From Acidobacteriota bacterium (GTDB lineage: Bacteria; Acidobacteriota; UBA890; WLXD01), in contig CBDFKD010000002.1 in NCBI GenBank assembly GCA_965248695.1, positions 5,376,001-5,440,000 of the forward strand: a stretch of DNA of 64,000 nt, read 5' to 3'. The notes beneath the pieces are model-generated. The model was not told the DNA's origin, did not search any database, and was given only the letters and a program-made list of their open reading frames with translations. How positions within the stretch are numbered: the stretch's first letter is position 1; every line of letters begins with the position of its first letter. Shown here one piece after another: positions 14,449-64,000 of the stretch. The position numbers were made by a program, and so were the translations under genes.

Positions 14449-14615
14449 TCTTGATGATATAGTTATCATATTAAAATCGTATTACACTTATTTACAGTTT
14501 TTCCACAGGCCTGACGGCCCTGGCGAGCCTCGCCAGCACGCCGAAACCCCTTATATGTCGGTGATCCAGGTCCGGAACGGCGGAAATAGGATTCCGCCAC
14601 CACCGATTATCCACA
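14449..14615. promoter_or_regulatory. AT-rich tract with DnaA boxes
   Basis: TTATCCACA 14607-14615, TTTTCCACA 14499-14507, TTATTTACA 14488-14496; ATGATA-N4-TATCAT 14454-14469. Confidence 0.55.
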
Positions 14616-20954: not shown

Positions 20955-21062
20955 TGACAGGCTCTTTCAGGTTAACCTGGGCGCTCCGGGCCGTTGGCCT
21001 GGCTCTCTCTCTCTCGCCCGTCGCGCCACGTCTCTGTTTCCCTGAGGTGCCCGAGCCGCCCG

Positions 21063-22451
21063 ATGCATGACGCCGCCTCAGGTGATCTGTTCGGTCCGCC
21101 GGACGGGCCTGCCAGTCCCGCCGAGATCGATCCCGGGGCACCGCTCGCCGAGCGCATGCGCCCACGGACCATCGAGGAGGTAGTCGGCCAGGAGCACCTG
21201 CTGGGCGATGGCAAGTTGCTGCATCAATTCGCCATCTCGGGGCGCCTGACTTCGCTGATCCTCTGGGGGCCCGCCGGCGTCGGCAAGACGACCCTGGCGC
21301 GCATCGTCGCAGTCGCCGGTGACAGCCGCCTCGTCGAGCTGTCGGCGACGACGGCAGGGGTCAAGCAGGTTCGTGAGACGGCGGAACAGGCAGCTCGGCA
21401 GCGGCGCCATTCCGGCGGCCGGACCGTCCTGTTCATCGATGAGATTCATCGCTTCCACAAGGGCCAGCAGGACGCCCTCCTCCCGTGGGTGGAGAATGGG
21501 TCGATCGTGCTCATCGGTGCTACTACCGAGAATCCCTCTTTCGAGGTGGTGCCCCCGTTGTTGTCACGATGCCGCGTCGTGCGGCTTGCGACGCTGACGA
21601 CGGACGACCTCGAGCAACTTCTCCGGCGCGCTCTCGCCACGCCCGGGCCGCGCGGTCTCGACGCATCGTCGGTCGAGTTTCCCCCGGCGCTCCTGAGCCA
21701 GATCGCCGCCCTGGCCGACGGTGACGCCCGCGCCGCGCTGACGGCGCTGGAGCTCGCCGTCGGTCTGGCTCGCCAGCGGGACCCGAAGGACGCGGTTGTG
21801 AACGGAGGCGACGTCAAGGAAGCGCTGCAGCGTCCGCACCTGCGCTACGACCGCGAAGAGCACTTCAACCAGATCTCGGCGTTACAGAAGAGCATCCGAA
21901 ACAGCGATCCCGATGCGGCCCTCTATTGGCTGGCCCGCATGCTCGAAGCAGGTGAAGCACCCCTGTACGTGGCTCGGCGGCTGGTGCGGATCGCCAGTGA
22001 AGACATCGGCCTCGCCGACCCAACGGCGCTTCCGGCCGCCGTCGCCGGCATGCAGGCGATGCACGCCATCGGCATGCCGGAGGGCGCGCTGGCGCTGGCA
22101 CAGGTGGCGATTCACCTGGCGTCGGCACCCAAGAGCAATAGCCTCGAGGCCGCATACATTGCTGTGGTGGACGAGATCCGCGCAAGCGGCAGCCTGGCCG
22201 TGCCGCTGCATCTGCGCAACGCTCCGACCCGCCTGATGAAGGAGGAAGGGTACGGTCAGGGTTATGTCTACGCGCACGACCTGGCAGATGGGGTCGCGGC
22301 GATGACCTGCCTGCCGGAAGAGATCCAGGACCGGCGCTTCTTTGTGCCCGGCGAGCGCGGGGCCGAGGTCGAGATTGCGAAACGAATGCGGGCGGCTGCC
22401 CGGGCCAATCGAACTCCCGCGAACCCGGATGCCGTCGACGACTCGGGCTAG
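21063..22451 (+). CDS. rarA: Replication-associated recombination protein A
   Basis: [38 protein letters not shown]. Confidence 0.95.
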
Positions 22452-24943
22452 CTGATTCCGGGTGCCCGGCGCCGCGATACCTTCTTCTTGCGGCGCGGCG
22501 CCGAGCTGGCCGCGGCCTTGCGCGGAGCCGGAGGCAACGCCATCAGCGCGTGCTCGAGAGCCTCCTCAACCCGGTCTATGAACACGAAGTCCAGCCCCTT
22601 GCGCGCCGCTTCCGGTATCTCTTCGAGATCCTTCTCGTTCTTCCTCGGCATGAGGACCCGCTTGAGCCCGGCGCGGTGCGCCGCCAGGACCTTGTTCTTG
22701 ATGCCACCCACCGGAAGCGCCAGACCACGTAGGGTGAGCTCGCCGGTCATGCCCAGGTCGCTGGCGACCCGGCGACCGGTGAACAACGAGGCCAATGCCA
22801 CCAGCATCGCGACGCCCGCCGACGGTCCGTCCTTCGGGGTGGCGCCGGCAGGAACGTGAACGTGTACGTCGTAGGTCTTGAACGTGCCGTCGGCAATACC
22901 GAGCTCGCCAGCGTGGCCACGCAGGTACGACATCGCCGCCTGGGCGGACTCCTTCATGATCTCACCGAGCTGGCCGGTGAGACGCAGCTCCCCCTTCCCC
23001 TTCATGCGAGTCGCTTCGATGAAGAGAATGTCGCCACCGCTCACGGTCCAGGCGAGGCCGACCGCAACGCCGGGAACGGCTGTCCGCTCGGCGACGTCGG
23101 AAAAGAACTTGATGGGTCCGAGGAAACCATGCAGATCGCCAACGGTGACCTCGAGAGGCTCGGCGGGAGCCGCCTCGGGGTCGTCGATACGTTCCGCAAC
23201 CAAGCGCGCGCGGGCACGGCAGATCGCCGCCACCTCGCGTTCCAGGCCGCGCACTCCGGCTTCCTCCGTATAGTCGCGCACGATCGCCGCGATGGCGCCG
23301 TCGGCGAACCCGAGTTGCTCCGGCGTCAGGCCGTGATCATCAAGCTGACGCGGTACAAGGTAACGCTGAGCGATCTCCACCTTCTCTTCGGCCGTATAGC
23401 CCGGCAACTCGAGGATCTCCATCCGATCGCGCAACACAGCGGGTATGCCCTCGGGCATGTTGCCGGTGGCGATAAACAGCACCCGCGAGAGGTCGAAGTC
23501 GACCTCCAGATAGTGATCCGAAAACGTATCGTTCTGCTCCGGATCCAGCACCTCCAGCAGAGCAGAGGACGGATCGCCGCGGAAGTCCTGGCCGACCTTG
23601 TCGATCTCGTCGAGCATGAACACCGGGTTCATCGACGCGGCGCGCTTGATTCCCTGGATCACGCGGCCAGGCATCGCACCCACATAGGTGCGCCGATGGC
23701 CGCGGATCTCCGCTTCGTCGTGCACGCCCCCGAGTGAAAGCCGCACGAACTCACGCCCGAGAGCCGCCGCGATCGAGCGACCCAACGACGTCTTGCCCAC
23801 TCCGGGGGGGCCGATGAAGCAGAGGATGGGTCCGCGCTTGTCGGGCTTGAGCTTGCGCACGGCCAGGTACTCGATAATCCGCTTCTTCACCTTTTCCAGG
23901 TCGTAGTGATCCTGGTCGAGAAGCTCTGCGGCGGTCTTCAGATCGAGATTGTCCTCGGTGTACGTGCCCCACGGCATGTCGAGAATCCACTCGAGATAGG
24001 TTCGCAACACGTGGTGCTCGGCAGCGGCCGGCGACATCCGAGCCAGCCGATCGAGCTCCTGGGTTGCTACCTTGCGAACCTCATCGGTCATGACGGCTTC
24101 GTCGATACGGCGACCGAGCCGTTCGATCTCGGCGTCGTCCTCTTCCTCCCCGAGCTCCCGCTTGATGGCTCGCAAGCGCTCTCGCAGATAGATCTCGCGC
24201 TGGCCGCGATCGATCTCGCCTTGCACCTCCGATTCGATCTTCTGGGACAGCTCGAGCACCTGGACCTGATGCGTGAGCTGCCCGAGCAACACGGTGAGCC
24301 GGTCCGCTACGGAGACCGTTTCCAGCACCCGTTGCTTGTCGTCGACACTGGTGGCGATATGAGCTGCGATGATGTCGACCATGTCACCGGAGCGAGCCGC
24401 CGCCCTCGCCAACCCCTCGAGCTCCGACGGTAGGTTGGGCGACAGCTCGATGAGCTGACGCAAGAGACGCATGGCGCTGACGCGCTTCGCCTCCATCTCG
24501 ACGGTTAGGGATCCTGGCTTCTCCGGTACCTCGAGCCATGCGGCGTGCATGTACGGATCTGTCGAGGTGACCTCGGCGAGGCGCAGGCGTTGGACGCCCT
24601 GGACGATGACGTTGAGGTTGCCGTTCGGCAGCTTCAGAACCTTCACCAGGCGCGCCAGCGTCGCCACCTCGTGCAGATCATCCGCCAGCGGCTCCTCTAT
24701 CTGGGCGTCGCGCAAAGCGGTGACCGCCACCAGCCGATCGTTGTCGAGGGTCTCCGTGACCAGCTGCTGTGAGGGCTCCCTGCCGACGAGCACCGGCATG
24801 ACGACGCCCGGAAACAACACCGACCCACGTAGCGGCAACACGGGCAGCGTCGCCGGGAACTCGATGTCTGTTTCCGCCGGGTAACCGAGCTCCTGCTGGA
24901 TCTCGGCGTCCAGATTGCTGTCGAACGGATCGGAATCAGCCAT
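22448..24943 (-). CDS. lon: ATP-dependent protease Lon
   Basis: LPVLPLR N-domain, [28 protein letters not shown]. Confidence 0.97.
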
Positions 24944-25056
24944 TTCTCGTTGTTCGCTCTCTCGATTGGGCGCCGGTAGCAGCTACCCTCGCGGATATCG
25001 TACCGCGCCCCATTCGTCCGTATAGCGCAGCGCCGCTCAGCCGCACGCTGCAGAGG

Positions 25057-25980
25057 TCATTCCTTCTCTCGGCGTGGATCGTACGGGTGCTCGTCGCGCA
25101 ATTGCCGCATCACCTGCAGCATCGACTCGTCGAGGGTGGTCGGCAGGGCAATCGACACCTTGGCCATGAGATCGCCCGCCCCACCGGTAGCGCGCGGCGC
25201 GCCCCTGCCACTCACACGAAATACCTGTCCGTTTACCGTCCCGGCGGGAAGATTGATCGCAGTGGTGCCATCGAGAGTCGGAACCTTGACGTGCCCACCG
25301 AGCGCGGCCTCGTAGATCGTGACCGGTAGATCGGTGTGCAGATCGTCGCCGACGAGACGAAACTGCGGGTGGCTGGCGATGCCGACCTCGACGTACAGGT
25401 CGCCACTCCCGCCGCCATTCGAGCCGGCCGCTCCCTTGCCTCGCACGCGCACTTTGGTCCCGGGGCGCACCCCGGCGGGAATACGCACCCGCGTGCGGCA
25501 AGCCTTGCCGTTGTCCGCCCGGTAGCTGATGACGCGCTCCGCGCCGTTGATCGCGTCCTCGAGACCGAGGTCGACACGCACCTGGACATCGCGCCCGCGG
25601 GAGGGAGGTGCTTGACGAGGGCGCGGGCCACCGAAGGGGCCACTCGAGCCCAGGCCACCGAGCAGGTCCTCGATGTTGAATCCACCGACCGAGAAACCTC
25701 CGCCGCCGAAGAACTGGCCGAACTGCTCCGAGAACCCCGAAGCGTCGAAGTCACGCGCGAACGCCTCGTGACCGACCTGGTCGTATTTCTTCCGCCGCTC
25801 AGCCTCCCCGACGACATGGTAGGCCTCCGAGATCTCCTTGAACCGATCCTCGGCCTTGGCATCGCCCGGGTTGACATCGGGGTGCCACTTGCGCGCCAGT
25901 TTCCGATAGGCGCGCTTGATCTCTTCGGCGGTTGCCGTCTTCGCGACGCCGAGAACAGCGTAGTAGTCCTTGCGAGCCAT
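25057..25980 (-). CDS. dnaJ: DnaJ-class co-chaperone without zinc finger (CbpA type)
   Basis: J domain with HPD, G/F-rich linker, C-terminal domain, no CxxCxGxG. Confidence 0.92.
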   Translation of the reverse strand: MARKDYYAVLGVAKTATAEEIKRAYRKLARKWHPDVNPGDAKAEDRFKEISEAYHVVGEAERRKKYDQVGHEAFARDFDASGFSEQFGQFFGGGGFSVGGFNIEDLLGGLGSSGPFGGPRPRQAPPSRGRDVQVRVDLGLEDAINGAERVISYRADNGKACRTRVRIPAGVRPGTKVRVRGKGAAGSNGGGSGDLYVEVGIASHPQFRLVGDDLHTDLPVTIYEAALGGHVKVPTLDGTTAINLPAGTVNGQVFRVSGRGAPRATGGAGDLMAKVSIALPTTLDESMLQVMRQLRDEHPYDPRREKE

Positions 25981-26032
25981 CTAGCAAGCCGTGGTGAAAG
26001 GGCGGTGGGTCATGAGGTCAGCCCTGCCCATT

Positions 26033-28654
26033 CTAGGCCGCTGCGTCAGCGGTGACAGCGTCGGCCACCTTGCGGAACGCGAGCACGGACGTCGTCGGGT
26101 CAGCATCCACCCGCACCCGATCACCTTCGGTGTATTCGCCCGACAGGATGGCCTGCGCCAGCGGGTTCTCGACGAGTTGTCGAATGACACGCTTGAGTGG
26201 ACGAGCCCCGTACGCCGGATCATAGCCCCGCTCCGCCAGCAGCGCTTCGGCGGCGGTGGTGAACTCGATGTCGAGATTGCGCTCCGCCACCCGCATCGCC
26301 AGCTGGTCGAGCTGAATGCGCACGATCTCCCGTAGATGCGCTGCCGATAGCACCGAGAAGACGATGGTCTCGTCGACGCGGTTGACGAATTCCGGGCGGA
26401 ACGTTTGCCGGACGGCGTCCATGACAGCCGCCTCGACCCTCTCGATCCCTATCTCGTCGACCCGTTGTAGGTGTTCGCTGCCGAGATTCGAGGTCATGAT
26501 GATGACGCTGTTCGAGAAGTCGACGGTGCGTCCCTTGCCGTCAGTCAACCGACCGTCATCGAGGATCTGGAGAAGGATGTTAAAGACGTCGGCATGTGCC
26601 TTCTCGATCTCGTCGAGCAGAATGACCGAGTACGGACGACGGCGAACCGCCTCGGTCAGGAAGCCACCCTCCTCGTGCCCGACATAGCCCGGCGGCGCCC
26701 CGATCATGCGTGCTACGGTGTGGCGCTCCATGTACTCCGTCATGTCGAGTCGAATCATGGCCTCGTCGCTATCGAACATGAACTCCGCCAGTGCCTTCGC
26801 CAACTCGGTCTTGCCGACGCCGGTCGGACCGAGGAACATGAAGGATCCGTACGGACGACCGGGCTCCTGCAATCCGGCGCGGGCGCGGCGGATAGCGTCC
26901 GATACGGCGGCTACAGCCGTCTCTTGTCCGACCACGCGTCGGTGAAGACGAGCCTCCATCTCGAGTAGCTTCTCGACCTCCCCTTCGATCAGCTTGCTGA
27001 CCGGAATGCCGGTCCACCGCGACACAACGCCGGCGACGTCCTCGGCGTCGACTTCCTCCTTGAGCATCGCGTTGCCGTCGCCGTGCAGTTCCTCCAGCCG
27101 ACGATGCGACGTCTCGAGCTCCGCCTCTGCATCGCGAACGACGCCGTAGCGCAGCTCCGCGGCGCGCGCCAGATCACCGTCGCGCTCGGCGCGATCCGCC
27201 TCGGTGCGCGCCTCCTCGATCCGCCGCTTGAGCTCCTGGATGCCACGCACGTGTCGGACCTCGTCGTCCCACCGCGCCCGCAGGTCTTCGTGCTCTGCCG
27301 CCAGGACGCCGAGATCTTCCTCGAGCACGCTCAGACGTTCACGGGAAGCATCGTCGTCTTCGTTGCGCAGCGCCTCACGCTCGATCTCCATCTGGCGGCG
27401 GCGGCGTTCGATCTCGTCCAACGGGGCCGGCATGCTATCGATCTCCACGCGCAGGAGCGCTCCGGCCTCATCCATCAAATCGATCGCCTTGTCCGGCAAG
27501 AATCGGTCGCTGATATAGCGATGAGAAAGCGTCGCCGCGGCGATCAGCGCGGCGTCACGAATCCGTACGCCGTGGTGAACCTCGTAACGTTCCTTCAGAC
27601 CTCGGAGGATCGAGATGGTTTCTGCTACGCCGGGCTCTTCGACCCGCACCGGCTGGAACCGCCGCTCGAGCGCCGGGTCTTTCTCGACGTGCTTTCGGTA
27701 CTCGTTCAACGTCGTGGCACCGATCGCGTGCAGCTCTCCCCGCGCCAGGGCCGGCTTCAACATGTTGGACGCATCAACGGATCCCTCAGAGGCACCGGCT
27801 CCGACCACGGTGTGCAGCTCATCGATGAACAGGATCACATCGGCGGCCTCGGTGACCTCCCGTAGGAACGCCTTGAGCCGATCCTCGAACTCGCCGCGGT
27901 ACTTGGCCCCAGCCAGCATTGCGCCGAGATCCAGGCTAATCATGCGTCGGTCTTTCAAGGTCTCCGGGACGTCTCCGTTGACGATGCGCTGCGCCAGACC
28001 TTCGACGATGGCCGTCTTGCCCACTCCGGGCTCGCCGATCAAGACCGGGTTGTTCTTGGTCCGTCGCGACAGCACCTGCACCGCACGGCGAATCTCCTCG
28101 TCACGACCGATCACAGGGTCGAGCTTGCCGCGGCGCGCGGAGGCGGTGAGATCCACGCCGTATTGACCGATGGCGTCGTACTTATCCTCGGGGTTGGGAT
28201 CGGTGACGCGCATCGATCCCCGCACTTTCTGCAGCGCCGTGAACAGCTCGTCGCGGCCGACGCCGCGCCCGGTGAGCAGATCGGCCGCCTTGCCCCCAGA
28301 CCCGAGGAGTCCCAGTAGCAAGTGCTCTGTGGAGACGAACCGATCCTCTAGCTGATCGGCTTCGGTGTGGGCCGCCTCGAAAGCCGCGCTGGTCGTTGGC
28401 TCGAGGTACGGCTCGACGTTGCCGCCGGTCACCCGTGGGCGGAGCTCGGCCTCCTGCAGGGCGGCGTGGTGCATTGCGTCCGGATCGCTTCCGAGCCGCT
28501 GCAGGACGGTACGCACGACGCTGTCCGTCGGCTCAAGCAAAGCCACCAGCAGATGCAGGCCGGCGATCCCCTGGTGCTCCATGGACTGCGCCAGCGTTCG
28601 GGCGCGTTGCGCAGCCTCCTGCGCCTTCACGGTAAACCTGTCGAAACGAATCAT
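26033..28654 (-). CDS. clpB: Chaperone ClpB
   Basis: Two AAA+ modules ([16 protein letters not shown]), long coiled-coil M domain. Confidence 0.97.
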
Positions 28655-28668
28655 GTCGAGGGTCCTCC

Positions 28669-29304
28669 TCAGCCGCGCCGATCTCGCCGCTCATGTGGCG
28701 ACGAGAAGGGCTCCCGGTTCAGATCACGCACCACCGATGCCACACGCCCGATCACCTCGATGTCGGCGCCAGCGTCGAAGCGGCCAATCAACGGCACCGC
28801 CGCTCGACGACCTCCTGCCATCTCCAGCAGAAGGACGCGGCGAGACTGGATGCCCAGCAAAAGGTCTCCTCGGCGATGCTCGGCGCCGCAGTCGACCACT
28901 AGCAGATCGCCTTGCAGGATCCCGCGGGAGACCAGCGAGTCGGCGCGCACCTGCACCGCCACCGCGTCAGGTCCTACCAGCCTGCCGTCCACATACAGCT
29001 CGCGTCCGCTACGCCGCGTGAGGCCGCCCTCAGACGGAACCTCGGCGACCACCGGAACCGCGACTGACCGGCGCCCAGCCGTCGGACGTGCGAGGCGCGC
29101 CAGTTCGATGCCGCGCGACGCGCCGGGACGGCGGCGTATGAACCCCTTGCGCTCGATCGCCTTGAGGTGATCGGAGATCCCGGCCGCCGATGTCAGGCCA
29201 AAAGCCCCGGCAATCTCCATCAGCGTTGGTGGGATGCCGTTCAGGCGCACCTGACCGACGATGAAGTCGTAGATCGCGCGCTGTCGTCGGGTGAGCGGCA
29301 TCAT
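28669..29304 (-). CDS. LexA-like repressor with degenerate S24 peptidase domain
   Basis: LT.RQ..IYDFI...PPT..EI..HL.A.E.KG.I.R....SRGI LexA DNA-binding domain; no Ala-Gly site and no catalytic Lys. Confidence 0.85.
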   Translation of the reverse strand: MMPLTRRQRAIYDFIVGQVRLNGIPPTLMEIAGAFGLTSAAGISDHLKAIERKGFIRRRPGASRGIELARLARPTAGRRSVAVPVVAEVPSEGGLTRRSGRELYVDGRLVGPDAVAVQVRADSLVSRGILQGDLLVVDCGAEHRRGDLLLGIQSRRVLLLEMAGGRRAAVPLIGRFDAGADIEVIGRVASVVRDLNREPFSSPHERRDRRG

Positions 29305-29374
29305 CTGCCCGGTCCTCGCATCGAGATTCGGCCGTAGCTAACGGCCGGTTCAGGTGGGGGCTGGAAACGAGACC

Positions 29375-29420
29375 ATTATACCGAAATAACTTACGGTATA
29401 CAAGAAATTCTTTCGGTATC
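29375..29420 (-). promoter_or_regulatory. Sigma70 promoter of the lexA-like operon with two overlapping palindromic operators
   Basis: Minus strand TTGTAT (29403-29398)-17 nt-TATAAT (29380-29375); TATACCGAAA-N4-TTACGGTATA 29377-29400 and TATACAAGAA-N4-TTTCGGTATC 29397-29420. Confidence 0.8.
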
Positions 29421-29486
29421 CCTGGCAGACCGCAAAAGCGTCGCCGATTTGTCGGAGATGGGGCTCCCGCCCTCGTGTCCCGAGCT

Positions 29487-30146
29487 CTAGATGGCGGCCG
29501 ACTGATCCTGCGGCCAGGGACATACGTCGGCCAGCACACACCCCTCGCAGTCGGGCTTGCGCGCCTTGCAGGTGTAGCGGCCATGCCAGATGTAGAGACG
29601 CGAGATGTCGCGCCAGCGGTTCTCTGGATACAGCTCCCCGAGCCGTTGCTCGATCTTCACGGGATCCGACTCGGCGGTCAGGCCCAGTCGCTGGCTAACA
29701 CGCCGGCAATGCGTATCGACCGCTATCCCCGGGAGCCCGAAGGCACCGGCGCGCACGACGTTCGCCGTCTTGCGCCCTACGCCTGGCAGCGCCGTGAGCT
29801 CTTCCATCTCGCGGGGCACTTCGCCGCCGTGCAGCTCCACCAGCATGGCGCAGCAACCCTGGACGCTCTTGGTCTTCTGACGGAAGAAGCCCGTGCTGCG
29901 CAGCTCCTCCTCGAGGTCGTCGCGCGACGCCTCCGCCAGCGACGCGGCGTCCGGGTACTTGCGGAACAGTCCCGGCGTGACTTGATTGACGCGCTTGTCC
30001 GTCGATTGCGCCGACAGAATCGTCGCAATCAGCAGCTGTAGCGGGCCGTCGAAGTCGAGCTCGACGCGCGCCTCCGGGTACCGTTGCTCGAGTCGATCCA
30101 GGATTTCCGCGGCGCGAACCTGGCTCTCTCTTCGGCGCGCCGTCAC
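29487..30146 (-). CDS. nth: Endonuclease III
   Basis: ILSAQSTD, LPGVGRKTA HhH, VDTH, C.ARKP.C..C.L...C. Confidence 0.95.
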   Translation of the reverse strand: MTARRRESQVRAAEILDRLEQRYPEARVELDFDGPLQLLIATILSAQSTDKRVNQVTPGLFRKYPDAASLAEASRDDLEEELRSTGFFRQKTKSVQGCCAMLVELHGGEVPREMEELTALPGVGRKTANVVRAGAFGLPGIAVDTHCRRVSQRLGLTAESDPVKIEQRLGELYPENRWRDISRLYIWHGRYTCKARKPDCEGCVLADVCPWPQDQSAAI

Positions 30147-30943
30147 CCCGCCCCTCCTGCCGCCTCCTGCGCCGAGGTGCTGATCCGCACCGCGGTGGTA
30201 AGCAGTTGGGTGTGACCCACCATGCGATGAGCCGGACGCGTCTTCCCGGGCCGAGCGAGGATTTCTCGTACCAGGACCTCCACTGTTTCGACCATGCCGA
30301 AACCGTGCTCCGGCAGCGCCCCGGCGAGCCGCTCGACCTGGTTGAAGGTTGGTGTGCCGGCCGCGAACCTGCCGCTGCCGCGCAACGATGCGGCAATCGC
30401 AGCGAGCTCGACCCAGGGCTCGGGCACGTCTGTGAAAACGGCGTCGACGTCGGGCTCCAGCTCATCGCCCGCCTGTCGCAGACGGAAGTCGAGCCCCTCT
30501 TCGATACCAGCTGCCGTGGTGTTGTCGCGCGCGAGCTCCAGGAACTCAGGCCGGCGGTCGTAGGAGTACACCATTCCGCCGGGTGCCACCGCCTCTGACA
30601 GGGCAATGGTCATCGCCCCCGATCCCGAGCCGATCTCGATCACTCTGGCGCCGGCGCGCAGGTCGAGCGCTGCGACGAGGAACGCGACGTCCTTCGGATA
30701 CATGATGTTGGTGCGCCGGTGCACCTTCATCATGCGGTCGATCCACCGAGGTCGAAGAAGCAGGAGGCTCGCCCCGGTGTTGGTCAACAGCACGTCTCCC
30801 CACGCCCGCCCGATAACGTCATCGTGCTCCATGGCCCCCTTGTGCGTGGAGTGTCGCTGGCCGGTTTGCAGGCGCAACAGGAACGTCTTTCCGTCCTCGA
30901 GCGTGACGAGCACCTGATCGCCAGGACGGATCGTGTCGGTCAA
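30143..30943 (-). CDS. trmI: tRNA (adenine-58-N1) methyltransferase
   Basis: IMYPKD, EIGSGSGA, DVPEPW, RP.HRMVGHT. Confidence 0.9.
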   Translation of the reverse strand: MTDTIRPGDQVLVTLEDGKTFLLRLQTGQRHSTHKGAMEHDDVIGRAWGDVLLTNTGASLLLLRPRWIDRMMKVHRRTNIMYPKDVAFLVAALDLRAGARVIEIGSGSGAMTIALSEAVAPGGMVYSYDRRPEFLELARDNTTAAGIEEGLDFRLRQAGDELEPDVDAVFTDVPEPWVELAAIAASLRGSGRFAAGTPTFNQVERLAGALPEHGFGMVETVEVLVREILARPGKTRPAHRMVGHTQLLTTAVRISTSAQEAAGGAG

Positions 30944-62376: not shown

Positions 62377-64000
62377 TCAGAACAGACCCTCGACGCCACC
62401 CTCGGGCGTAACGCGCATTCGATTGGCAGCCGGCACCCTGGGCAGTCCGGGCATGGTCATGACGTTGCCGAGATGGGCGACGACGAACCCGGCGCCCGCC
62501 GACGGCGTTACGTTCTGGACGCTCACCGTGAATCCCGTTGGTCGGCCCAGACGGCTCGCGTCATCGGTCAACGAGGCGGGCGTCTTGGCCATACATACCG
62601 GGGTGTCTCCGAGGTCGTTTGCTTCCAGGAAGGCGATCGACTTGCGCGCCTGTGAGCTGAACTCGACGCGCTCGGCACCGTAGACGCTGGTCGCGATCGT
62701 CTCGATCTTGTCGGCAATCGGCAGATCTGTCTCGTAGGCATGCCTGAAGTCCGCCTCGTCGGCGTCGAGCGCGGCCACCAACTTGTGCGCGAACGCCTCA
62801 CCGCCCTCACCACCGTGCGCGTGGATCTCGAGAGTGTCGGCGCGCACTACCTTCGCGGCGCAGTGCTCGAGCACGGCGTTGACTTCGGCATCCGTATCGG
62901 TGGCGAAGCGATTGATTGCAACCAGCGGCGGCAGACCGTGCAGGCGGACGTTGGCAATGTGCGCGTCGAGGTTGGCGGTCCCTGCCTCGACCGCGGCAAC
63001 ATCCTCGCTCGTGAGGCTCTTCGACTCCGCACCGCCATGGAGCTTCAGCGCCCGAATCGTGGTGACAAGCACAGCCGCCTGTGGGCTTATGCCTCCGAGA
63101 CGGCACTTGATATTGCAAAACTTCTCGAACCCCAGGTCGGAACCGAAACCTCCCTCGGTAATCACTACGTCCGCCAGCGACATCGCCGCCCGCGTTGCGA
63201 CCAGCGTATTGCAGCCATGCGCGATGTTCGCGAACGGGCCACCGTGCACGAACGCCGGCCCTCCTTCGATCGTCTGTACGAGGTTCGGCCGGATGGCATC
63301 CCGGAGCAACATGGTCATCGCTCCGGTGACCTCGAGGTCGCGCGCCAGTACCGGACGCCCCTCGTAGTCGGCGCCAACAATGATGCGCCCGAGACGCACC
63401 TCGAGATCGTCGATGTTCGTCGCCAGACATAACGTCGCCATGACTTCGCTCGCCGCGGTAATCACGAAGCCGTCTTCCCGGGGAACACCGCTCATGGGAC
63501 CACCGAGACCGATCACGAGCCGCCGCAACGCCCGATCGTTCATGTCAACGCAACGTCGCCAGGTGATGCGCCGGGGATCAATGCCGAGCTTGTTGCCTTG
63601 ATGCATGTGGTTGTCGATCGCCGCCGCCAGCAGACCGTTGGCCGACGTTATGGCGTGCAAGTCACCGGTGAAGTGGAGGTTGATGTCCTCCATCGGCAAC
63701 ACCTGCGAATACCCGCCACCGGCGGCGCCACCCTTGATACCGAAAATCGGCCCCAGGCTCGGCTCACGGATCGCTGCGGCCACATTCTGACCTATTCGCC
63801 GAAGCGCCTGCGAAAGGCCCACGCTTACCGTGGTCTTACCCTCCCCCGCACGGGTCGGGGTCGTCGCGGTGACGATCACCAGCTTGGCTTTCGGCTGCAG
63901 GCGCTCGAGCGTCGGGCGCCGGAGCTTCGCCTTGTCAGATCCGTACAGATCGAGGTCATCGGACGACAGCCCGAGCTCAGCCGCCACGTCGGTGATGGGT
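62377..64000 (-). CDS. fhs: Formate-tetrahydrofolate ligase, 5' end outside window
   Basis: PT.AGEGKTT, GIKGGAAGGG, HGGPFANIAHG, MTMPGLP. Confidence 0.97.
   Translation of the reverse strand, partial: PITDVAAELGLSSDDLDLYGSDKAKLRRPTLERLQPKAKLVIVTATTPTRAGEGKTTVSVGLSQALRRIGQNVAAAIREPSLGPIFGIKGGAAGGGYSQVLPMEDINLHFTGDLHAITSANGLLAAAIDNHMHQGNKLGIDPRRITWRRCVDMNDRALRRLVIGLGGPMSGVPREDGFVITAASEVMATLCLATNIDDLEVRLGRIIVGADYEGRPVLARDLEVTGAMTMLLRDAIRPNLVQTIEGGPAFVHGGPFANIAHGCNTLVATRAAMSLADVVITEGGFGSDLGFEKFCNIKCRLGGISPQAAVLVTTIRALKLHGGAESKSLTSEDVAAVEAGTANLDAHIANVRLHGLPPLVAINRFATDTDAEVNAVLEHCAAKVVRADTLEIHAHGGEGGEAFAHKLVAALDADEADFRHAYETDLPIADKIETIATSVYGAERVEFSSQARKSIAFLEANDLGDTPVCMAKTPASLTDDASRLGRPTGFTVSVQNVTPSAGAGFVVAHLGNVMTMPGLPRVPAANRMRVTPEGGVEGLF

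Follow-up and report, generated by a model that had tools for sequence, protein, structure and literature searches.

A 64,000-nt stretch of the genome of an Acidobacteriota bacterium (GenBank assembly GCA_965248695.1, contig CBDFKD010000002.1, here G000:C2:5376001-5440000; "the window" below) carries a codirectional gene cluster in which a LexA-like gene precedes clpB, a dnaJ-like gene and lon. The genome under study (G000) comprises 5.9 Mb with 65% G+C. Coordinates follow the numbering of the whole window, and positions on the contig are marked C2. The cluster consists of four genes:

28669..29304, minus strand: lexA-like gene, 211 aa, with another in-frame ATG at 29301; its product joins a LexA-type winged helix-turn-helix by a linker to a predicted catalytically dead S24-type C-terminal domain.
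26033..28654, minus strand: clpB, above the NCBIfam cut-off; the sole ClpB above cut-off in G000.
25057..25980, minus strand: dnaJ-like gene, 307 aa; J and C-terminal domains, zinc finger absent (CbpA-like architecture).
22448..24943, minus strand: lon (LonA), above the NCBIfam cut-off; one of two lon genes in G000 and the final gene of the cluster.

Open reading frame (ORF) calls confirm the layout described in an initial annotation of this DNA, namely a LexA-type winged helix-turn-helix gene that stops 14 bp before clpB, with dnaJ and lon following in the same direction. Intergenic gaps measure 14 nt (lexA-like/clpB), 52 nt (clpB/dnaJ-like) and 113 nt (dnaJ-like/lon). ClpB and Lon both score above the respective NCBIfam equivalog cut-offs, and the CXXCXGXG zinc-finger domain is missing from the DnaJ-like protein in Pfam and NCBIfam scans. 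Upstream of the lexA-like gene, on the same strand, lie nth (endonuclease III) and a trmI-like gene, nth being separated from it by a spacer of 182 nt.

The product of the lexA-like gene, referred to as the regulator, contains a full-length LexA_DNA_bind domain at residues 1–65 (Pfam PF01726, 3.9e-22). Its remaining part scores below curated thresholds, with 17.5 bits for Peptidase_S24 (Pfam cut-off 23.3), and the whole protein reaches 102.9 bits against the NCBIfam lexA model TIGR00498 (cut-off 110.95), which the two other lexA genes of G000 exceed with 160.4 and 153 bits. Comparison of residues 79–211 with 33 canonical Acidobacteriota LexAs by hhalign yielded 98.6% probability (E 7e-16), and a profile of 19 full-length orthologs matched E. 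coli LexA chains of the PDB at 1e-28, isolated C-terminal domains being matched as well (profile positions 84–179). By these alignments the C-terminal half is a true LexA C-terminal domain, and the protein shares the winged helix-turn-helix, linker and S24-fold architecture of canonical, E. coli-type LexA (PDB 3JSO, 1JHH). No MerR domain (Pfam) and no ligand-binding family (Pfam, NCBIfam) was matched in the regulator.

S24 peptidases self-cleave by a Ser-Lys mechanism. In both the profile alignment to E. coli LexA and the hhalign comparison, the scissile Ala-Gly pair corresponds to Ser91-Glu92 (VPSE) of the regulator, Ser119 to Ser123 (ADSL) and Lys156 to Leu160 (VLLLE). The initial annotation, aligning by eye, had read the cleavage site GRVAAG as AEVPSE and the catalytic lysine as lost, and both readings extend to the family: Ala-Gly is found in none of the 19 orthologs (SE, SV, SA, AL, GG, GS, SR, AR, AH and AV stand there instead), and the position of the general-base lysine is occupied by Leu, Met, Val or Ile in all 19. 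Its third statement, that the catalytic serine is kept, is correct for this protein but does not describe the family, the nucleophile being present in only five of the 19 orthologs (four members of the genus of G000 and one more). Because the Ser-Lys mechanism needs residues that are lost here, self-cleavage, whether RecA-stimulated or alkaline, is not expected, and the regulator is very probably not inactivated in this way. It departs from canonical LexA in the missing Ala-Gly and Lys, in a serine that is not conserved and in its score below the equivalog cut-off.

The neutral decay of the C-terminal domain that the initial annotation had named as contrary to its proposal was not observed. 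Estimates of dN/dS (Nei-Gojobori, 12 pairs) range from 0.03 to 0.22 in the DNA-binding domain and from 0.08 to 0.42 in the C-terminal domain in 11 pairs, one further pair being saturated; judged by these ratios, the dead domain is under purifying selection. Nor did the other contrary outcomes listed there turn up, that is, orthologs with Ala-Gly and Lys, orthologs away from clpB, or an independent clpB promoter without co-transcription. Reading frames are unbroken in the 19 full-length orthologs and one variant, which represent two families, and D106, R108, G128, L130, G132 and D133 vary little or not at all. Lost catalytic residues and S24 and whole-protein scores below curated cut-offs would also be expected of a decaying, functionless remnant of a duplicated lexA, yet this explanation is already contradicted by the intact frames and by dN/dS well below 1 in both domains, and the conserved operator and gene order described below speak against it as well; we regard it as extremely unlikely. 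The dead S24 domain has most likely been kept for dimerisation or sensing. In the DNA-binding domain, the positions aligned with N41, A42, E44 and E45 of E. coli LexA, which we take to be base-contacting residues, are A, G, A/S and D, and the recognition-helix sequence is unlike that of both canonical G000 paralogs.

The adjacency to clpB that the initial annotation proposed to examine in relatives is conserved: clpB lies directly downstream of the regulator gene in 20/20 loci, and the order regulator-clpB-dnaJ-lon is found in 15 of 18 longer loci, which include two pairs of identical records. Two of the three remaining longer loci end within clpB or dnaJ at contig ends. The stop codon of the regulator gene and the start codon of clpB overlap as ATGA in 8/20 loci; elsewhere the gap amounts to -1 to 3 nt (seven loci), 14 nt (G000), 58–59 nt (two loci) or 303 nt (G007). 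These stop/start overlaps argue for co-transcription of regulator gene and clpB. Sequencing runs listed as containing this DNA number four, all from one study, and no RNA run is among them. The G007 spacer (L118 7703-8015) contains long internal inverted repeats, is unique to that genome and resembles an inserted small repeat element; neither promoter-like nor terminator-like sites were matched within it.

Inspection of the region upstream of the regulator gene identified a predicted promoter and two putative operators:

29375..29403, minus strand: sigma-70-type promoter, -35 box TTGTAT at 29403-29398, 17-nt spacer, -10 box TATAAT at 29380-29375.
29378..29399, no strand assigned: primary operator, a 22-bp palindrome with the core TACCGAAATAACTTACGGTA (CCGT-N8-ACGG), filling the -35/-10 spacer; 33.1 bits with the position weight matrix (PWM).
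29398..29419, no strand assigned: secondary operator, a degenerate copy placed exactly 20 bp further upstream; 22.0 bits with the PWM; its promoter-proximal arm is the -35 box.

The motif TTG-17 nt-TAnnnT is kept in orthologous upstream regions. A consensus scan detected the equivalent promoter in L118 and missed that of G000 because its -35 box matches the consensus in just 3/6 positions. An equivalent palindrome is located between -35 and -10 in 20/20 orthologous promoters, as a perfect 22-mer in L017, with the consensus C(C/T)GT-N8-AC(G/A)G (CYGT-N8-ACRG; ~20 bp, A+T-rich centre). Two sites at 20-bp spacing also occur in L006/L115, L007/L116, L009/L124, L013/L119 and L018. When the whole G000 genome was scanned with a PWM made from the 20 orthologous sites, ranks one and two (33.1 and 22.0 bits) both fell in the regulator promoter, followed by sites of at most 17.8 bits. 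These next-best sites, one of them near window position 14479, have poor arms and were taken as chance matches rather than as a wider regulon. A loose operator pattern matched three times in the window against 0.13 matches expected: two matches are the regulator promoter sites, the primary one without mismatches, and the third, at 63141 with three mismatches, was likewise attributed to chance. The pattern was matched in three of five genomes of relatives, each one's only match with at most one mismatch being its own promoter, and matches with two mismatches were about as frequent as for a reversed control pattern. PWM scores did not exceed 18.0 bits at 30 clpB loci of other Acidobacteriota, and in twelve operon loci of ~10 kb, sites scoring above 15 bits were confined to the promoter.

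Operators placed in the -35/-10 spacer are typical of repressors, not of activators. This position bears on the possibility that the regulator controls only itself, or acts as an activator, while clpB, dnaJ and lon are transcribed from promoters located within or downstream of the regulator gene. Such an arrangement would accommodate the 303-nt spacer before clpB in G007 and a weak promoter-like match (9/12) that overlaps the end of clpB ahead of dnaJ. The G007 spacer is, however, devoid of promoter-like sites, a single promoter-like match in 7.8 kb is close to chance (0.7 expected), and in 15/20 loci the stop codon of the regulator gene overlaps the clpB start or directly adjoins it. Together with the repressor-type position of the operator, this makes the arrangement very improbable, and repression of the whole cluster from the upstream promoter is the reading pursued here.

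The gammaproteobacterial SOS box reads CTGT-N8-ACAG. The operator of the regulator has the same geometry, its tetranucleotide arms being separated by 8 bp like those of canonical LexA operators, and the site of L016 reads CTGT-N8-ACAG exactly; this equality of half-site spacing fits binding by a LexA-type dimer. Autoregulation, too, is probably common to both proteins. A distinct palindrome, CAGACA-WW-TGTCTG, was found in lexA1-type promoters of 7/7 relatives examined (L196-L201 among the loci); it probably represents the SOS box used in this lineage. Promoters of the lexA2 type contained nothing resembling either the regulator operator or the lexA1 palindrome. An operator shared with a DNA-repair regulon did not emerge: in G000 the only copies of the regulator operator lie in the promoter of the regulator gene itself. 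These data bear on whether the operon still belongs to the DNA-damage response, with the dead paralog inactivated indirectly (by an anti-repressor, by mixed dimers with a cleavable LexA or by trans-cleavage), so that ClpB, DnaJ and Lon would be induced along with repair genes. Descent from LexA, the SOS-like half-site spacing including the L016 site, the neighbouring genes nth and rarA and an intact LexA1 in the same genome are what such a scenario would predict. Against it stand the absence of Ala-Gly and Lys from 19/19 orthologs, an operator found at neither the lexA1 nor the lexA2 promoter nor elsewhere in the genome, a recognition helix different from that of both canonical paralogs and the lack of an anti-repressor candidate within the conserved cluster. 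We therefore consider continued membership in the DNA-damage response quite unlikely.

The check for a second, intact lexA suggested in the initial annotation brought up two further lexA genes above the NCBIfam cut-off, so that the regulator is, in terms of family assignment, the third LexA-type paralog of G000. LexA1 (238 aa; G000:C2:697364-697936, locus L001 1390-1430) keeps Ala-Gly, Ser and Lys and precedes an imuA-like gene. LexA2 (215 aa) is encoded ~68 kb away from the regulator gene. In a tree of 52 sequences, regulator orthologs group together in a single clade (support 100/100). A long branch leads to this clade, which falls outside both canonical groups, and its internal branching mirrors the split between the two host families, f1 and f2. 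The tree was rooted at the midpoint only and comprises no cyanobacterial sequences; the donor lineage of the regulator is not placed in it.

The higher-scoring LexA2 (G000:C2:5336571-5337164, locus L002) retains Ala-Gly and Ser, with Gly at the position of the catalytic Lys (TAVGRFF). Comparison with further loci (L033, L192-L195, L190, L191, L026-L032) revealed a residue other than Lys at this position in five family-f1 relatives examined, Gly in four and Ala in G007. Lys is kept in two family-f2 relatives, and the reduced genomes of genus g9 have Arg there together with Ala-Ala at the cleavage site. Going by these residues, family f1 may harbor two LexA-type proteins unable to self-cleave and one that is able.

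A profile search of 401 Acidobacteriota genomes returned 19 matches at 270–313 bits, all in families f1 and f2 and hence in one order. Remaining matches stayed at or below 140 bits, and ten of these that were checked are canonical LexAs without an adjacent clpB. Two unpublished genomes, G071 and G047, are included in this and in one further tally, and statements on L158 and L180 rest on them. Within the order, the regulator occurs in 22/26 genomes, namely as 19 full-length copies, a variant in G005, a contig-end fragment in G021 and the last 21 codons in G001. The latter, located at a contig start directly 5' of clpB, were at first missed because the contig ends there. The G005 variant (L024 961-1722, 254 aa) has a ~45-residue Arg/Ala/Gly-rich insertion that lengthens the linker joining the DNA-binding domain to the C-terminal one; clpB still follows immediately, and the operator lies almost at the start codon of the variant. 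The regulator was not found in G015, G016, G017 and G025 (1.2–2.5 Mb; 55–88% complete), and a search of these genomes with the G000 ClpB found no ClpB ortholog, giving partial matches at 48–51% identity in G015-G017 and none in G025 (55% complete). G015-G017 belong to genus g9 of family f2 (1.2–2.5 Mb, 72–88% complete), whose larger member G020 has both regulator and ClpB.

Among the best 80 LexA-related loci of a species-representative collection, clpB was found nearby only in six Acidobacteriota orthologs. A search of 5.8 billion proteins identified 51 clusters at E ≤1e-20, for which PF01726 is the only precomputed domain and whose source labels, where named, are "repressor LexA" or "hypothetical". 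Orthologs annotated in this way would be miscounted as SOS regulators.

The initial annotation reported no CIRCE element (controlling inverted repeat of chaperone expression) at the locus. This holds at up to four mismatches, the sole good CIRCE match of the genome being situated before hrcA. There, hrcA-grpE-dnaJ, encoding a zinc-finger DnaJ, is preceded by a CIRCE with one mismatch (C2:4388881; HrcA at C2:4389321); a second CIRCE-like site with three mismatches lies at C2:4485199. This operon is arranged tail to tail with dnaK-dnaJ-merR (G000:C2:4386500-4398500, locus L189), whose merR gene (C2:4393597-4393839) encodes an HspR-like protein with 48% identity to that of another Acidobacteriota. 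The dnaK leader contains a degenerate inverted repeat resembling HAIR (HspR-associated inverted repeat). RpoH was not detected above cut-off in G000. The proposal of a repurposed heat-shock repressor, which the initial annotation had coupled to a check for hrcA and hspR, thus holds in a narrower form: HrcA/CIRCE and an HspR-like MerR protein are both present at other chaperone operons, so that the regulator would be a third chaperone-gene repressor and not a general replacement, taking over wholly from neither.

At 30 clpB loci outside the order, 55/83 upstream ORFs were scanned, a selection made up of each locus's two or three longest. Ahead of clpB, the neighboring gene was hsp20 in seven loci (codirectional in six), a dnaJ lacking the zinc finger in four, grpE in two and lon in one, and a LexA DNA-binding domain was detected in 0/55 of the scanned ORFs. 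In two of the four dnaJ loci, both from other Acidobacteriota, a MerR/HspR-like gene heads a dnaJ-clpB cluster, recognized by Pfam in L168 and by a near-identical helix in the translation of L170. The DnaJ-like protein of the operon shares 42% identity over its full length with the hspR-linked DnaJ, and aligns with the dnaK-linked DnaJ of G000 in separate pieces of 30% and 42% identity. It is plausible that a clpB/dnaJ(/lon) unit under HspR control in other lineages was taken over in this order by a LexA duplicate. Outright replacement of HspR by the paralog was ruled out, as the HspR-like gene is retained after dnaK-dnaJ; at most, therefore, the clpB-dnaJ-lon part changed hands.

Homology to LexA, loss of catalytic residues, gene order, stop/start overlaps and a genome-unique operator are established by sequence comparison. 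Building on these, we consider it likely that the regulator acts as a dimer and represses this one operon, its own. A dimer would bind the C(C/T)GT-N8-AC(G/A)G palindrome in the -35/-10 spacer of its own promoter, and in G000 also a second, weaker site 20 bp upstream, and would thereby shut off one transcript comprising the lexA-like gene, clpB, the dnaJ-like gene and lon; its own operon would be its only target. As is characteristic of chaperone-operon autorepressors, the regulator is encoded in its predicted target operon, and its putative operator overlaps a sigma-70-type promoter. On balance, we favor the wider interpretation of a lineage-specific, RecA-independent local autorepressor of a proteostasis operon that belongs to the LexA family and acts in the manner of HspR or HrcA. 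The joint absence of regulator and ClpB ortholog from the four reduced or incomplete genomes searched, and the fact that G000 has one ClpB and no RpoH above cut-off, count in favor of this interpretation.

In this model the operon would be turned on by proteotoxic stress, and not by RecA or DNA damage, via loss of active repressor. Candidate routes for this loss are titration of DnaK, DnaJ and ClpB as the chaperones that fold the repressor, degradation by Lon and thermolability. Signal and release route are drawn from the analogy with HspR/DnaK, HrcA/GroEL and CtsR/ClpCP, and we give proteotoxic stress as the inducing signal roughly even chances. Feedback by refolding, which is homeostatic for HspR and HrcA, would be so here too; feedback by Lon would be self-amplifying, and the sequence does not choose between them. 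The C-terminal domain might alternatively sense another signal (a small molecule, redox state or starvation) to which the operon is tuned. Purifying selection on a domain without catalytic residues and its invariant or nearly invariant positions (D106, R108, G128, L130, G132, D133) would suit a sensor of this kind, and cyanobacterial non-SOS LexAs are reported to answer to salt or redox. Several of the conserved positions are, however, also kept in cleavable LexAs and therefore point to the fold rather than to a ligand, no ligand-binding family was matched, and the predicted targets are only a disaggregase, a co-chaperone and a protease. We consider a different signal unlikely and retain proteotoxic stress as the working assumption. 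A further-reaching version, in which the regulator represents an undescribed, LexA-derived class of heat-shock repressor whose former cleavage domain senses folding state, reports free chaperone and protease capacity and feeds back on the genome's only clpB, is conceivable but rather doubtful; the former cleavage loop might, for example, be recognized by the co-encoded DnaJ, ClpB or Lon.

Several points weigh against the autorepressor interpretation. The PWM was scored on its own training sites, and the 20 promoters are not independent observations, since the orthologs are kin. That the regulator dimerises through its dead domain is an assumption based on homology. A 303-nt spacer parts regulator gene and clpB in G007, and no lon was matched in L125 within the remaining 2 kb. 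With HrcA/CIRCE and an HspR-like protein already in place, G000 need not have a third heat-shock repressor. Finally, DNA-repair genes on both flanks (nth, rarA) and SOS-box geometry leave room for a residual link to DNA damage.

Canonical LexA runs the SOS regulon, whereas the regulator has a single predicted target locus of chaperone and protease genes. LexAs of Synechocystis sp. PCC 6803 and other cyanobacteria are reported to lack a typical SOS response via auto-cleavage and to regulate other processes (PMC7567884, PMC4759255). These proteins are the LexA of their organism and have many targets, in contrast to a third paralog with one local target. HdiR of Lactococcus lactis is described as LexA-like and responsive to heat shock (PMC8565304), and IrvR of Streptococcus mutans is reported to be a LexA-like regulator outside the SOS paradigm. 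Both resemble the regulator in being LexA-like and tied to stresses other than DNA damage. They reportedly still undergo cleavage, unlike the regulator, which lacks the cleavage chemistry, and to our knowledge neither controls clpB, dnaJ or lon.

HrcA, which acts on CIRCE, and CtsR are dedicated chaperone/Clp repressors whose operators lie at sigma-70-type promoters, and the products under their control feed back on their activity. They belong to protein families different from that of the regulator, whose locus has neither an HrcA domain nor CIRCE. The HspR regulon includes clpB, and DnaK is the HspR co-repressor. As an autoregulated repressor encoded in a chaperone operon, HspR matches the predicted role of the regulator, but it is a MerR-family protein binding HAIR operators, unrelated in family and operator. 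Judging from a reference title, lon is part of the HAIR/HspR regulon in actinomycetes (PMC9775585). At the level of titles and abstracts, the literature searched contained no LexA-family regulator of clpB, dnaJ or lon and no work on heat-shock regulation in Acidobacteriota. Non-SOS LexAs and dedicated chaperone repressors are thus already known, and a cleavage-dead LexA derivative heading clpB-dnaJ-lon was not met in these titles and abstracts.

The LexA fold is the textbook self-cleaving repressor; here it has been kept over long evolutionary time without that chemistry, and appears wired to genes for protein quality control in a soil phylum that is widespread but hardly cultured. If the proposed role is correct, a LexA-derived protein would join the dedicated heat-shock repressors HrcA, HspR, CtsR and RheA, and a duplicated global regulator would have become a one-operon regulator by small changes in recognition helix and half-site (CTGT to CYGT). 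The operon would then also allow a clean test of what an S24 domain can sense once its catalysis is lost.

A permissive scan of window 22000-30200 gave zero matches to Rfam families. The 5' leader of the regulator gene contains a hairpin with a 7-bp stem and a 5-nt loop (window 29329-29347). An RNA thermometer was considered and dropped, as the hairpin lacks an Rfam match and is not conserved, leader lengths varying widely among orthologs. The operon is flanked by DNA-repair genes on both sides: nth (29487-30146, minus strand) lies directly upstream, and rarA/mgsA (20994-22451, plus strand) is convergent with it downstream. The C-terminal Fe-S motif of Nth is also seen 5' of the regulator gene in L016, L021 and L024.

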